A stretch of 64,000 nt of DNA from a virus (IMGVR_UViG_3300042892_003815:1-64000), one strand, 5' to 3'; shown: positions 1,749 to 60,455, numbered from the stretch's first letter. Notes: generated by a model not told the origin, from the sequence alone. Numbers and translations: made by a program.

Positions 1749-1776
1749 AAAAAACCAAGATTGCTCCTGGTTTTTT
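1749..1776. terminator. terminator hairpin
   Basis: AAAAAACCAAGA-TTGC-TCCTGGTTTTTT imperfect inverted repeat at end of 1775..2353. Confidence 0.6.
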
Positions 1777-2353
1777 ATAATAATTTGAATATAACATTTA
1801 CTTCAGAAGTTATTGTATCAAAAGATAATTTTTCAAAATATTCTTTATTTATTTTTTGTGGTTTCCCTGAGATATTTATATTAATATTCCACCCAGTTTG
1901 TTGAGTGAATAGATTATCATCCCCAATCGGTGTTTGTTCTTTTCTATAAACAAAATAAACATCTAATATGTTATAATGTCTCATAACACGTTCTACCATA
2001 AATAATAAATGATCTTTAACATCACCAATAATGAAATTATTCTCGTCAGTTTTATTTTCATCACCTTGTCTAACTTGTTTTTCGACTTTAATTCTAGCCT
2101 CAGTTTTTCTTTCACCAAATATGGTTTCTCCACCATGTCCTCTTTCAACTGAGTTTTCTACAAATGATATAGTTATAGTAAAGTCATCCTGTAAATAGGT
2201 AATAGAATCCAGTACAAACTCTTTAAATTCGGACTGTTTTTCTTCTGAACCAGTTAGGTTATTTTCGGTATTGGGTTCTTGTTCTTTAATTTTATCTTTT
2301 ATAAATGTTTTAACTTTATTGATAAAACCTTCGTGTGTTTTTATATACTTCAT
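1775..2353 (-). CDS. hypothetical protein with capsid-targeting-like N-terminal motif
   Basis: Starts MKYIKTHEGF. Confidence 0.7.
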   Translation of the reverse strand: MKYIKTHEGFINKVKTFIKDKIKEQEPNTENNLTGSEEKQSEFKEFVLDSITYLQDDFTITISFVENSVERGHGGETIFGERKTEARIKVEKQVRQGDENKTDENNFIIGDVKDHLLFMVERVMRHYNILDVYFVYRKEQTPIGDDNLFTQQTGWNININISGKPQKINKEYFEKLSFDTITSEVNVIFKLL

Positions 2354-2355
2354 AA

Positions 2356-2865
2356 TTAATATATTTTTATAAGAAAAGTTACTTCATTTATTTCTTCATT
2401 ATCTGATAGTTCTTCAAACTCTTCAATTGATAATTTTTCTTCTTCTATTTTAACTAACATTTGTACCTTATCATATGTTTTTTCAACTAACTGTGATGTT
2501 AGAAGAATATATTCTTTGACTTCTGATAAGTTAAAACTACTTTCTTCATCATCTTCAATATTTCTAAATATATTTACTTTGAATATGGTCTTGTATTTAC
2601 CGGTAACCAATTCTCCTTCTTTATTTACATAAGTATCATTTTCGCTAAATCCTACCTCTATTTTAAATCTATCATCATCTGATAAATAAGTTACTTCATT
2701 TTTAATTAGTTTTGATAAGTCTGCTTTTGGAAATTCATCTGGTAAACTAGGTTTTAATTCAAATAAAATATTGATTAGTTCGATAACCTCGTGAGTATCT
2801 AAGTCTTCTGGGTTAGTATATTTTATCTTACCGGTAAAATTTTCATATGTTTTTAAGTTTATCAT
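2356..2865 (-). CDS. hypothetical protein with capsid-targeting-like N-terminal motif
   Basis: Starts MINLKTYENF; late box TTATATATAA 4 nt upstream. Confidence 0.7.
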   Translation of the reverse strand: MINLKTYENFTGKIKYTNPEDLDTHEVIELINILFELKPSLPDEFPKADLSKLIKNEVTYLSDDDRFKIEVGFSENDTYVNKEGELVTGKYKTIFKVNIFRNIEDDEESSFNLSEVKEYILLTSQLVEKTYDKVQMLVKIEEEKLSIEEFEELSDNEEINEVTFLIKIY

Positions 2866-2878
2866 ATGATTATATATA

Positions 2879-2907
2879 AAAAAAACCAGGTGATTTACCT
2901 GGTTTTA
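2879..2907. terminator. terminator hairpin
   Basis: AAAAAAACCAGGT-GATTT-ACCTGGTTTT. Confidence 0.7.
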
Positions 2908-2910
2908 ATA

Positions 2911-3468
2911 TTATTTTTGAAATTTCATCAATCTATCAACTTCTGTATAATCCTTTCTATCTAATGCCTCATCAATTAAAGATTGTAAGTCTATTTTTCT
3001 TAATTTTGATAAGTCTTCAGTAACAAGTACATCATTATTATCTTCTTTTTGTTTATTTCTTAAATACTCAATATATCTATCGAGACTAGGCATTCTGATG
3101 TCATAACCTTTTTCTAGAAAATATAAGTAAGCATTTATTGATCTTTCATTTTTTGGTACTTTTGGTACTTTTACTGGCTTCATATTTTTTAATCTATCAT
3201 AGATTTTTTTAGTAACTGGTGAGAAATTATTAAAAACCATGAATTGTGGGTCATGTAATTTATTGGTATATTTACACATTAGTTGTTCTTCCATGCCAAT
3301 AACTTCACCTGTATCAGTTGCGATATACAATTTATTAGAACCTGTATTTTTATCACTTACTAATACTTCAAATCCCCAAGAATAGGTTTCTGAAATACTA
3401 AAAATTTGTCTTAAATCCATTGTCTTTAGATTTATACAAATTACCTTATCAATATTAAAATCCGCCAT
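2911..3468 (-). CDS. early protein with C-terminal IDEAL/UVR-like helical motif
   Basis: C-terminus LQSLIDEALDRKDYTEVDRLMKF; preceded by Bacteroidota-type promoter. Confidence 0.6.
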   Translation of the reverse strand: MADFNIDKVICINLKTMDLRQIFSISETYSWGFEVLVSDKNTGSNKLYIATDTGEVIGMEEQLMCKYTNKLHDPQFMVFNNFSPVTKKIYDRLKNMKPVKVPKVPKNERSINAYLYFLEKGYDIRMPSLDRYIEYLRNKQKEDNNDVLVTEDLSKLRKIDLQSLIDEALDRKDYTEVDRLMKFQK

Positions 3469-3485
3469 AGTTATTTTTATTTTTA

Positions 3486-57992: not shown

Positions 57993-58012
57993 TCATTAGT
58001 TATTATATTTTC

Positions 58013-58040
58013 AAAAAAAGACCCAATTGGGTCTTTTTTT
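58013..58040. terminator. terminator after capsid gene
   Basis: AAAAAAAGACCC-AATT-GGGTCTTTTTTT. Confidence 0.88.
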
Positions 58041-58065
58041 GTTTTATATAAATAATATATATGTT

Positions 58066-58458
58066 ATGAGATTAAAGAAATATAAACAATTTAATGAAAG
58101 TAAAAAAGACAAATTTCCTAATATTAAAAAAATGGAGATCGATGGATTTATTATTCATTTAGGTAAAGATGCAAAATCTAACGATCACTTAACATTTAAT
58201 GTTGCCGATAATGATGATATATGGATGCACGTAAAAGGTGTTCCGGGAAGTCATGTAGTTATTGTTGTTAAGGATAATATACCTACACCAGAAGTTATTA
58301 AAAAGGTTGCAGAAATTGCAAAAGATAATAGTAAAGCAAAAGGTACTGAGAAAGCCACTGTGGTTTACTGTAAAAGTAGATTTGTTTCAAAAAGACCAGG
58401 TATGAATGATGGTCAAGTTATGGTTGATTATAAAAATGCACATGAAGTCACTATATAA
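58066..58458 (+). CDS. stand-alone NFACT-R (RqcH/FbpA RNA-binding) domain protein with capsid-targeting-like N-terminus
   Basis: GKDAKSNDHLT...DDIWMHVKGVPGSHVVI; start moved to MRLKKYKQFNES. Confidence 0.8.
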   Translation: MRLKKYKQFNESKKDKFPNIKKMEIDGFIIHLGKDAKSNDHLTFNVADNDDIWMHVKGVPGSHVVIVVKDNIPTPEVIKKVAEIAKDNSKAKGTEKATVVYCKSRFVSKRPGMNDGQVMVDYKNAHEVTI

Positions 58459-58495
58459 TTTTAATATATAATAAAATAAAAATAAAACATTTTAA

Positions 58496-59872
58496 ATGGC
58501 AAATGATTATAAAATGAAATATGCAGATGAGATAAAGATTGCATTTTCTGCTAGGTTAGTAAAACTTCTAACTACAATGGAAGATGATCATGATGATTAT
58601 ATCGCATATGAACTTAACTGGATGGCAGATCCTAGGTCTAAATATGCCAATGATATGAATATATCTAGATTGGATATTTCTGATTCGGATTATTTCTTTG
58701 ATGCTATAATAGGTGGAAGAAGACAATATATCAAAATAGGAACATTTTTAAGAAGCTATTTCCCTGGTGTTTATGATGAGGAAAGTATTAGAAAATTTTC
58801 TAGTACTATTGTAAATCTTAAAAAAGGTGTGAAGATTCCAGTACAACCAGTTGGTACACCAATAGAACATAAACCATTCGTTTATAATCCTAAAGATGTT
58901 CGTTCAACATTCTTATCATTAGTAACAAAAACTTACCCAATGGGTCATGAAACTGAAGTTTTAGAGTTTTTACCAGACCTAGAAATAGATAAATTTGGTA
59001 ATTATTATAAAGTAATTGCAGGAGATGATACTACAATGTTTACGTCTCACTTAGATACTGCAGATAGAACACAATTACCTACTAAATTATTATCAAAAAT
59101 AGAAGATGGTGATGAGTATATTTATACTGATGGTACGTCTATATTAGGAGCAGATGATAAAGCAGGAGTTGCAGTAATGTTATATATGATGGAAAATAAA
59201 ATACCCGGAATTTATTACTTCTTTATTGGAGAAGAAAGAGGTGGTATTGGTTCAAGAGATTTGGCGAGTGAATATAGTTCATTTGAATTTCTAAAAAATA
59301 TTAAAAAGTGTGTTTCTTTTGATAGAAGAAAAACTGGATCAGTTATTACTTCTCAATATGGTAGAGTTTGTTGTTCAAATGAATTCGCTACCGCACTTTG
59401 TAAAGAATATAATAAAAGTGGATTAAATTTATCTACTGATCCAACAGGAGTATTTACCGATTCTGCATCATTTATAGATGATATATCAGAATGTACTAAT
59501 GTATCTGTTGGATATAATAATGAACATACATTTAGAGAGATACAAAATATGACTTATTTAGAGAAATTAGCAAAAGCTTCTTTAAAAGTAAATTGGTCAC
59601 AATTACCATCTGTAAGAAAAGTAGGTATAAATGAAGAATTATTGAGAAAACATAAAACTTTAATTGATACTGTTAAAAAATCTATCTTTGGTTTAGATGT
59701 TAAAGTAGTTGGTGTTCAAGATAAAATTTTTATTAAAATAGATTTAGACCTTGCGGATGTTAAAACTATCTTTGATACATTATCACAGGTACAAGGTTTA
59801 TTATATAAACACAGAACTGCAGACCCTTATGTTGTTTTTGACGAAACAACTATCAAAATAGAATTAAAATAA
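58496..59872 (+). CDS. M28/M42-like zinc metallopeptidase with extra N-terminal domain
   Basis: SHLDT, LGADDKAG, GEERG, SFDR, TDS, EHT. Confidence 0.85.
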   Translation: MANDYKMKYADEIKIAFSARLVKLLTTMEDDHDDYIAYELNWMADPRSKYANDMNISRLDISDSDYFFDAIIGGRRQYIKIGTFLRSYFPGVYDEESIRKFSSTIVNLKKGVKIPVQPVGTPIEHKPFVYNPKDVRSTFLSLVTKTYPMGHETEVLEFLPDLEIDKFGNYYKVIAGDDTTMFTSHLDTADRTQLPTKLLSKIEDGDEYIYTDGTSILGADDKAGVAVMLYMMENKIPGIYYFFIGEERGGIGSRDLASEYSSFEFLKNIKKCVSFDRRKTGSVITSQYGRVCCSNEFATALCKEYNKSGLNLSTDPTGVFTDSASFIDDISECTNVSVGYNNEHTFREIQNMTYLEKLAKASLKVNWSQLPSVRKVGINEELLRKHKTLIDTVKKSIFGLDVKVVGVQDKIFIKIDLDLADVKTIFDTLSQVQGLLYKHRTADPYVVFDETTIKIELK

Positions 59873-59873
59873 T

Positions 59874-60455
59874 ATGATACAAAAGTATAAAAGATTTATA
59901 GAAAGAGTTGATGATGATGCCTGGGAAGGTACAGATCAAGATTGGAATGATGATTGGGCAGGTGGTTCTAGAAGTGGAAAATCACTACCATCTCGTTTTG
60001 ATATGTCAGGTGAAATTTCAGATGATGATGAAGACTTTTACGATGATGAATACTACGGTCATAACTTTGGTCATTATGATAATAAAGATGGTGATACAGA
60101 TAGGGATCCAGATTTAAGTGATGAGGATATTGAAGATGATGATATGGAACACTTAAAATATCTATTAAGAGGCATGTTTAAAAATAAAGGTATTGAGAAT
60201 GTTTCTATTACAAATGATAACCTAGATTTATCTATTAGATGTTCTATGGGTCACAGAGAAAAATTAAGTGATGTAATAAATGTTTTTGATCTTTTAAATA
60301 AATTAAAAATGGACATTTTACCTCAATATGACTCAGAATTTGATATGTGGGAAAGTCAAAAAGGACAAACTTTAGAATTTGGATTCTATTATGATGAAGG
60401 ATTAAATGATGATACTGATGAAGATTTTGGAGAAGATGATGAAAGTCCATTTTAA
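59874..60455 (+). CDS. highly acidic protein with capsid-targeting-like N-terminus
   Basis: Starts MIQKYKRFIE; Asp/Glu-rich termini. Confidence 0.65.
   Translation: MIQKYKRFIERVDDDAWEGTDQDWNDDWAGGSRSGKSLPSRFDMSGEISDDDEDFYDDEYYGHNFGHYDNKDGDTDRDPDLSDEDIEDDDMEHLKYLLRGMFKNKGIENVSITNDNLDLSIRCSMGHREKLSDVINVFDLLNKLKMDILPQYDSEFDMWESQKGQTLEFGFYYDEGLNDDTDEDFGEDDESPF

Follow-up and report, generated by a model that had tools for sequence, protein, structure and literature searches.

A T4-like N-terminal leader on dozens of otherwise unrelated proteins of an uncultured huge phage: a putative capsid-targeting peptide

Introduction

In phage T4, the internal proteins carry at their N-terminus a capsid targeting sequence (CTS) of 10 residues, MKTYQEFIAE, which takes them to the scaffold core and is then removed by gp21 (10.1101/2021.01.19.427310). 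Fusion to the CTS packages foreign proteins, and the T4 tag is already in use for capsid loading (10.1101/2021.01.19.427310). The proteases of the gp21 family that have been studied all cut after Glu (PMC5694885). In this study, we focus on a CTS-like peptide, hereafter the leader, at the N-termini of proteins encoded in IMGVR_UViG_3300042892_003815:1-64000, a 64,000-nucleotide stretch of viral DNA (hereafter the window; positions 1,749 to 60,455 are shown), in which an earlier note had described sixteen unrelated proteins as a head-packaged cargo sharing such a peptide. The leader is carried by 35-40 of the 203 proteins of the contig from which the window is taken (18-20% of genes, about 3 being expected by chance), it picks out the internal proteins of T4 from among the T4 N-termini, and it suggests that dozens of unrelated proteins are probably loaded into the capsid. 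A literature search found no publication that describes a leader of this kind for huge phages.

The window covers the opening 64 kb of an IMG/VR viral contig of 190,950 bp and 29.5% GC content, with a completeness of 33% as estimated by CheckV, which gives a whole genome of roughly 0.6 Mb. Genes were called by a simple longest-open-reading-frame (ORF) rule, yielding 203 genes and 94% coding density. The sheath and capsid proteins are nearest to those of the 460-735-kb uncultured huge phages LR745206 and LR756500-LR756504 (63% and 73-74% identity, respectively), and relatives of the capsid protein occur in at least 233 IMG/VR stretches; 80 capsid loci with 70-91% capsid identity were kept as the set of relatives. 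Cultured relatives come no closer than about 27% identity in the capsid protein, and the hosts of the nearest ones are Flavobacteriia (Tenacibaculum, Chryseobacterium, and Flavobacterium). Because local tblastn detected 14 T4 homologues (gp18, gp47, gp44, gp4, gp20, gp23, gp61, UvsW, gp5, gp43, gp41, NrdA, gp49, and UvsX), the phage can be placed as a distant member of the T4-like world. The source is an uncultured huge phage of Bacteroidota.

Occurrence and form of the leader

All sixteen N-termini quoted in the earlier note were found where it had placed them; in two of these genes (41983 and 58066), the ATG is internal to a longer TTG-started ORF, and orthologues begin at that ATG. A position matrix derived from the N-termini of the contig itself gives 14 of the 16 a score of 7.5 bits or more, the weak scorers being 37878 (MKWIKNRNLFLEA) and 59874 (MIQKYKRFIER). 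The number sixteen holds for the window, with its approximately 65 genes, but is an undercount for the contig, which has about 40. When the matrix was iterated, 35 of 203 N-termini reached at least 10 bits, compared with one of 2918 internal windows. A regular expression, [KR]-x-[FYW]-[EDNKQS]-x-[FL] within the first 14 residues, matches 27 of the 203 N-termini, against 3.2 +/- 1.8 when each N-terminus is shuffled, and its rate is likewise low among wrong-frame ORFs (4/329), internal Met positions (7/954), and internal windows (28/3880). The leader is almost confined to N-termini, with 16 internal matches in 56,027 positions. Since the shuffled, wrong-frame, and internal-Met controls are all low, AT bias is no explanation, and these controls together with GC-rich relatives rule out AT bias or chance as the cause. 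The motif scan that the earlier note had proposed, carried out on the contig and its relatives, bears out an enrichment at N-termini over shuffles and internal windows.

Across 109 distinct leaders, relatives included, the consensus is M-K-Y-L-K-K-F-E-E-F-N-E-S, about 10-13 residues long. Its information-rich columns begin three residues ahead of a conserved Lys and end about nine residues behind it, with no conservation beyond; hydrophobic residues occupy -1, +2, and +5 relative to the Lys, the first half being basic and the second acidic, and the conserved core K-x-Ar-x-x-F (Ar, aromatic) lies 1-7 residues from Met1. Two flavours can be distinguished, a short form M-[KR]-[YHW]-[LI]-K-x-[FY]-E-x-F and a long form M-I-K-K-[FY]-N-x-F-[ILV]-x-E, and orthologues alternate between them. 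The leader genes of the window are as follows (aa, amino acids; a slash marks a candidate cut).

1775-2353, minus strand: leader gene, 192 aa, MKYIKTHEGF; no Pfam domain; core score 12.5
2356-2865, minus strand: leader gene, 169 aa, MINLKTYENF; box of the TAATATATA type (see below) 5 nucleotides before the ATG
3565-6252, plus strand: leader gene, 895 aa, MRYLNKREDF; homologues in huge-phage relatives only
6252-6833, plus strand: leader gene, 193 aa, MKHLKKYDIFLEE/A; long form, fits Ar-x-x-Ar-[LIVM]-x-E
14465-15223, minus strand: leader gene, 252 aa, MRYLKVYESF
15481-15873, minus strand: leader gene, 130 aa, MKYLKEYKIFES
15877-16455, minus strand: leader gene, 192 aa, MKYLKLFESF
28039-28320, plus strand: leader gene, 93 aa, MKIKTFDNFVNE/V; long-form leader
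34717-35694, minus strand: leader gene, 325 aa, MKWIKTYEEL
37878-39581, plus strand: weak leader gene, 567 aa; 4.3 bits
39578-41356, plus strand: leader gene, 592 aa, MKNLKYIKLFEAF
41357-41974, plus strand: leader gene, 205 aa, MKHLRIFDNF; clade-wide family with 1237 homologues
41983-42429, plus strand: leader gene, 148 aa, MRYLKTFENF, with a SET domain
43851-44405, minus strand: leader gene, 184 aa, MNYIKLFEDF
58066-58458, plus strand: leader gene, 130 aa, MRLKKYKQFNES, with an NFACT-R domain; directly after the capsid gene
59874-60455, plus strand: weak leader gene, 193 aa; acidic D/E-rich linker, then a conserved C-terminal domain

Outside the window, further leader proteins of the contig can be named by domain.

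Contig 117625-118608: Glyco_hydro_108 leader protein
Contig 136277: class I methyltransferase with a weak leader
Contig 166073: NUDIX protein with a weak leader

Leader proteins range from 64 to 895 aa with a median isoelectric point (pI) of 5.0, and most have no Pfam match. Among the enzymes that the earlier note had assigned to them, the SET and NFACT-R domains are supported by Pfam, and the cysteine hydrolase (41357) has weak fold support, its model returning only weak nicotinamidase, isochorismatase, and CARF-like matches in Foldseek; the ParB-like, LysM, and LRR domains were not found in leader proteins by profile searches (E <= 0.01). PDB sequence searches with 41357, 34717, and 14465 gave nothing useful. 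Tandem clustering of leader genes is not significant (11 adjacent pairs versus 7.7 expected, P 0.1).

Selection on the peptide and its portability

Codon use within leaders equals that of the gene bodies (AAA 0.83 versus 0.81, GAA 0.77 versus 0.77, and GC at third codon positions 0.19 versus 0.17), and identical leader residues share the same codon at a rate of 0.73, the expectation from codon usage. Relatives with 42-48% GC retain the peptide through Lys-to-Arg changes (MRRIRLFEEFN and MRYVKVFDEFT). Selection on the leader thus acts on amino acids and not on DNA, and the codon analysis rules out a DNA- or RNA-level element or a recombination site. A secretory (Sec), Tat, or lipoprotein signal peptide was also rejected, as the leader alternates Lys and Glu with single hydrophobic positions, is followed by acidic residues, and has no hydrophobic core of about 10 or more residues behind a basic N-region.

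The claim that the rest of each protein is unrelated was upheld: with the leader removed, one similar pair, and a weak one, remains among 40 leader proteins, which rules out a paralogous family. In the 41357 family, insertions and deletions lie immediately behind the leader, and in the AlphaFold model of 41357 (predicted template modelling score 0.83) residues 1-12 are unstructured (predicted local distance difference test 37) and a confident domain follows. The SET protein at 41983 gives the clearest case of grafting. Its phage versions begin M[KR]YLK[TLA]FExF[DE][FY]D.ID, and chromosomal homologues from Flavobacterium, about 60% identical, begin MD[CS]N[TS]I[DE]A, exactly at the end of the leader; one leaderless homologue lies among ordinary bacterial genes in GCA_027484205.1. 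Since the Flavobacterium homologues start right after the leader position, the leader can be regarded as a portable graft. A second comparison of this kind, for cellular homologues of the NFACT-R and 41357 families, found none among the best 120 matches listed, which are proteins from metagenomes or huge-phage contigs.

Likeness to the T4 capsid targeting sequence

The N-termini of T4 were read from its genome, and 258 T4 ORF starts were scored with the 7-column core of the leader matrix built from the contig only. IPIII, IPII, and IPI rank 1-3 of the 258, and gp61.1 (MKTFKEFIKED), an uncharacterised protein, ties with IPI in fourth place, after which the score falls from 13.3 to 9.7 bits. The relation to the T4 CTS that the earlier note had proposed is thus sustained, and matching head genes of the gp23 and gp21 type are present. 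If helical, the leaders have a hydrophobic moment of 0.44, versus 0.32 after shuffling (z 5.1), and the T4 CTS has one of 0.45. All 14 homologues of T4 core proteins (for replication or for outer structure) stay below the leader threshold of 7.5 bits; the portal scores weakly (5.4), and its N-terminus, MASYNNF, was rejected as a leader, being weak and variable.

As a separate observation on T4 itself, gp61.1 is a hypothetical 54-aa protein (18966-19130 of the T4 stretch) whose N-terminus is as CTS-like as that of IPI.

Head machinery and scaffold repeats

The genes on which a T4-type loading route would depend lie together in the window.

49264-51033, plus strand: portal, T4 gp20 homologue
53963-54652, plus strand: protease domain (aa 1-230) of a 739-aa prohead protease-scaffold protein, T4 gp21 type
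54863-55282, plus strand: ten tandem 14-residue scaffold repeats, KNIAYSEY[LIV]AENLD (aa 301-440)
56271-57992, plus strand: major capsid protein, Pfam Gp23 (E 2.6e-30)

The protease-scaffold gene (53963-56182) is directly upstream of the capsid gene and matches the head maturation protease family phrog_207 (E 7e-28). Its first 230 residues align with T4 gp21 in hhalign (E 4e-5), with in-register blocks NRNERIY/NRNKRLY, GEFDHP/GELNHP, and VSSRAAG/VSSRGLG (phage/T4); the blocks aligned with GEFDHP and VSSR contain the His and Ser that are catalytic in gp21. A Pfam S77 match of the protease stays below the cut-off (17.8 bits).

Each scaffold repeat combines a T4-CTS-like core, Y-S-E-Y-[LIV]-A-E, with an [LIV]-x-E cut motif, and this core nearly equals that of the T4 CTS, Y-Q-E-F-I-A-E. 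In 69 of 71 scaffolds of relatives, 10-13 matches to the repeat pattern are present, mostly 11; the repeats read KSIDYSxYIAE in LR756501 and are degenerate in LR756500. When a matrix of the scaffold repeat was applied to T4, its top three N-termini were those of IPII, IPIII, and Inh. These three belong to the prohead core; the T4 annotation gives Inh only as an inhibitor of the prohead protease gp21. The N-terminus of Inh, MIDKDYIAELK (inh, 13327-14007 of the T4 stretch), fits the scaffold repeat of the huge phage. In the best register between leader and repeat, LKKFEEFNESE lies over NIAYSEYIAEN, aromatic over aromatic. A global similarity of the leader profile to the repeat was not significant; only the long-form subset fits. 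The shared signature Ar-x-x-Ar-[LIVM]-x-E is present in 9 of 203 N-termini versus 0.59 expected, in 10 places in the scaffold, and in 16 of the remaining 54,701 positions.

As to possible cut sites, hydrophobic-x-Glu with P1 at +6 to +10 occurs in 52% of leaders versus 18% of other N-termini, and P1' at these sites is mostly small (Ser, Glu, Gly, or Asn). The N-terminal piece of the capsid protein is conserved across relatives and includes EWMSEYAEFHSINE/N, a candidate maturation site (E43/N44). In the portal, a variable N/Q/S-rich N-terminus precedes a conserved ..[AG]-[VI]-E/N-K-G-L-F-S-R-I-L, again a candidate maturation site (E28/N29). Both are of the x-x-Glu/Asn kind, like the scaffold repeats.

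Two leader genes are fixed within the conserved head module near the capsid gene, with 25 of 62 and 20 of 56 orthologues at the matrix threshold and most of those below it leader-like by eye. The former figure belongs to 58066, whose orthologues in related loci vary in leader form; for 59874, clear leaders are seen in many orthologues.

Several other features were also noted. An acidic tract follows the scaffold repeats, with AEEAKEF three times and then GEEHE six times (about 55400-55700, aa about 480-580). The conserved head module also contains two paralogous M28-like peptidase genes (phrog_4191) at 58496-59872 (E 3e-63) and 60486-61763 (E 1e-52), flanking the leader gene at 59874; a possible role for them is that of aminopeptidases removing fragments of the scaffold or of leaders. 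An exoribonuclease of the RNase II/R type (RNB domain, E 1e-107) is encoded at 51493-53376. A conserved 427-aa protein near the portal (45420-46703) starts with MKNLKLELFNFKKD, kept as MKNFKLELFNFKN in LR756501, which is leader-like by eye and below the threshold. A small separate ORF at 29723-29932 matches the middle of Gp23 (29699-29905, E 3e-16, profile positions 126-191) and has the look of a piece of capsid protein encoded away from the true capsid gene; another such piece, with a weaker match, is found at 146626-146748 of the contig.

Promoter boxes

The dominant upstream word of the contig is TAATATATA, which lies within 80 nucleotides of 64 genes and is 18-fold enriched. It occurs in two geometries, either about 20-25 nucleotides before the ATG with an A-rich stretch after it (about 50 genes) or 2-8, mostly 4-5, nucleotides before the ATG (38 genes); examples are found at 2866-2880, 35695-35710, and 58050-58065. 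Genes with the near geometry are probably transcribed as leaderless or nearly leaderless mRNAs, and they carry the N-terminal leader in 13 of 38 cases versus 27 of 165 for other genes (odds ratio 2.7, P 0.02). All 23 leader genes that have their own upstream region have the box, the other 14 being operon-internal, so the box that the earlier note had assigned to leader genes is indeed there. Its late specificity was not sustained: since the same word stands before the DNA polymerase, NrdA, UvsX, and UvsW genes, as well as before those for sheath, portal, and protease, and before about 45% of the genes overall, the evidence does not mark it as late.

A second box, TAnnTTTG, precedes 17 genes, none with a leader (P about 0.02 at a leader rate of 20%), so that the statement that no early-promoter gene has the motif agrees with 0 of 17, at a P of only about 0.02. 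These boxes are found at 3469-3500, 37749-37810, 53777-53830, 60456-60485, and 63923-63950, with 12 more on the contig; TAnnTTTG is a host-type box, the -7 type of the Bacteroidota housekeeping sigma factor (sigma-A).

The leader in relatives

By the strict criterion, 13 of 304 genes (4%) have the leader in four 50-kb samples of LR745206, and the orthologues in that phage retain leader-like starts, two of seven reaching the threshold. Leaders in LR756501 are of the form N-x-Y-K-x-F, and LR756500, where the scaffold repeats are degenerate, has few leaders. The head-module loci of the 80 relatives have the leader in 100 of 1730 genes. By these figures, the present contig is leader-rich. The 25-kb head region of Tenacibaculum phage PTm1, the cultured phage nearest to this one, has no leader among its 24 genes. 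The end of the contig (188500-190950) holds low-complexity repetitive ORFs on both strands (MNQMYQMNQMYQNYQMY... and PIPEVPDVPEEP...), which suggest either a tandem-repeat gene or an assembly artefact.

Interpretation and alternative explanations

On balance, we lean towards the view that the leader is a prohead-targeting peptide of the T4-CTS type, here extended from three or four proteins to dozens and attached to captured genes. The inferred steps are docking to the scaffold, cleavage of the leader, retention of the cargo in the head, and its injection. The short amphipathic N-terminal helix would dock a newly made protein onto a scaffold core formed from the C-terminal portion of the protease-scaffold protein, in which the repeats share the aromatic-x-x-aromatic-hydrophobic-x-Glu signature, and the gp23-type shell would close around this core. 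The gp21-type protease, cutting after Glu, would then dice the scaffold repeats, trim the capsid and portal proteins, and remove the leader at least from cargo with hydrophobic-x-Glu just after it, while the cargo would stay in the head and exit with the DNA. A bolder version, which we put forward only tentatively, is that the T4-CTS-like leader of this clade copies the phage's own scaffold repeat and loads about a hundred different proteins per genome, including enzymes recently captured from Flavobacterium, into the capsid for delivery together with the DNA, with new cargo gained by a graft of about 10 codons.

Several observations weigh against capsid targeting. With a fifth of the genes tagged, every known case is exceeded by an order of magnitude. 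The position directly upstream of the tail sheath gene, in which one would look for proteins of the tail or neck, is taken by two leader genes, and the homologues of 3565 in huge-phage relatives likewise adjoin a sheath match. It is not obvious what cargo such as an NFACT-R RNA-binding domain would do within a capsid, and cultured phages, including those with virion data, yielded no homologues of the large leader proteins. Similarity between the overall leader profile and the scaffold repeat is not significant (column-permutation P 0.6), and the strict repeat matrix separates leaders weakly (z 2.6). Because hydrophobic-x-Glu is present in only 52%, about half of the leaders, chiefly of the short form, have no obvious cut site at the expected place. 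The word TAATATATA, shared with replication genes, was rejected as proof of late timing, and T4 gp61.1, with its CTS-like N-terminus, is not known to be packaged. Some of this would suit a docking tag for another hub, be it a further virion part (tail, neck, or baseplate), a chaperone of the phage, or a phage compartment inside the cell, its likeness to the T4 CTS being a common amphipathic-helix solution. A tag that is N-terminal, portable, detached from the fold, and selected as amino acids fits any docking role, and the sheath-adjacent genes, the profile that does not significantly resemble the repeat, and the sheer number of tagged proteins point the same way. We nevertheless consider this explanation unlikely, as we would not expect a generic amphipathic helix to select exactly the three T4 internal proteins of 258, the long-form leaders share the signature of the scaffold repeat and T4 cut site 15-fold above chance, and leader genes are fixed within the head module.

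Two further explanations fare worse. The leader might be an N-degron read by a Clp-type unfoldase working with a phage ClpP and limiting the lifetime of accessory proteins; a ClpP is encoded on the contig (89076-89735, Pfam CLP_protease, E 1e-66), and one class of N-terminal ClpX signals, reportedly described by Flynn et al. in 2003, is Met-basic-hydrophobic-hydrophobic, which the start M-K-Y-L resembles. Such a degron is quite improbable, given that the core K-x-Ar-x-x-F stands 1-7 residues from Met1 and not at the extreme N-terminus, and that it would give no reason for the resemblance to the T4 CTS and to the scaffold repeat. A nucleic-acid or translation feature, whether an AT-rich start, a leaderless-mRNA context, or a recombination site for cassette swapping, could draw on the low GC content and on the enrichment of leaders among near-geometry genes, but it is largely refuted and deserves very little credence. 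Leader codons match those of the gene bodies, identical residues share codons at the chance rate, and the motif is missing from wrong-frame ORFs and shuffles and kept in GC-rich relatives; many leader genes are operon-internal or have mRNA leaders of 20-25 nucleotides, and the most highly expressed structural genes have no leader.

If the leader works as in T4, the protein payload of this phage would be far more diverse than any described, under a simple rule by which about 10 residues are grafted onto any protein. The list of leader genes would then serve as a catalogue of first-minute effectors (anti-defence, host takeover, and cell-wall entry) for a phage clade that is abundant and uncultured. 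A further suggestion would be that the T4 CTS, whose binding partner to our knowledge has never been defined, is read as a mimic of a scaffold repeat.

Comparison with known systems

Phages phiKZ, 201phi2-1, and SPN3US resemble the present phage in having very large heads, tens of internal proteins, and a gp21-homologous protease that cuts after Glu (PMC5694885, PMC10052503). In SPN3US, 8 of about 50 head proteins are processed (PMC5694885, PMC10052503). Unlike the leader, the propeptides in these phages are long (often more than 100 residues) and share no common short leader, and no common 10-residue tag has been described for the three phages (PMC5694885, PMC10052503).

With the T4 scaffold proteins gp22, gp67, and gp68 and with protease-scaffold fusions, this phage shares a protease gene directly upstream of the capsid gene and a scaffold rich in Glu-ended cut motifs; the N-terminus of T4 gp22, MLKEQLIAEA, resembles the present repeat. 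In PTm1 (AP019524), the gene annotated 'prohead core scaffolding protein and protease' is a protease-scaffold fusion, as here. The PTm1 protein (18162-19931 of its stretch) has its own, different tandem repeat, [FY]TKELSEGIEKWI, whereas here a regular array of ten 14-residue repeats mimics the T4 CTS. Scaffold repeat arrays may be general in this group, each lineage having its own tag.

The closest likeness is to the T4 CTS. In both systems, a peptide of about 10 residues is found at the N-terminus of otherwise unrelated proteins, with the common core K-x-[FY]-x-[EQ]-F-[ILV]-x-E and the same amphipathic moment, in company with a gp23 shell, a gp21-type Glu-specific protease, and a scaffold core; to judge from the natural SET graft, the leader may also share the portability of the T4 tag onto foreign proteins. 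While T4 has three or four tagged proteins, about 40 are present here in a third of the genome, counted from the genes alone, and in the short form that dominates, M-K-Y-L-K-x-F-E-x-F, a clear cut site of the T4 type is missing. The T4 internal proteins are highly basic (10.1101/2021.01.19.427310), whereas the putative cargo of this huge phage is mostly acidic and includes host-derived enzymes.

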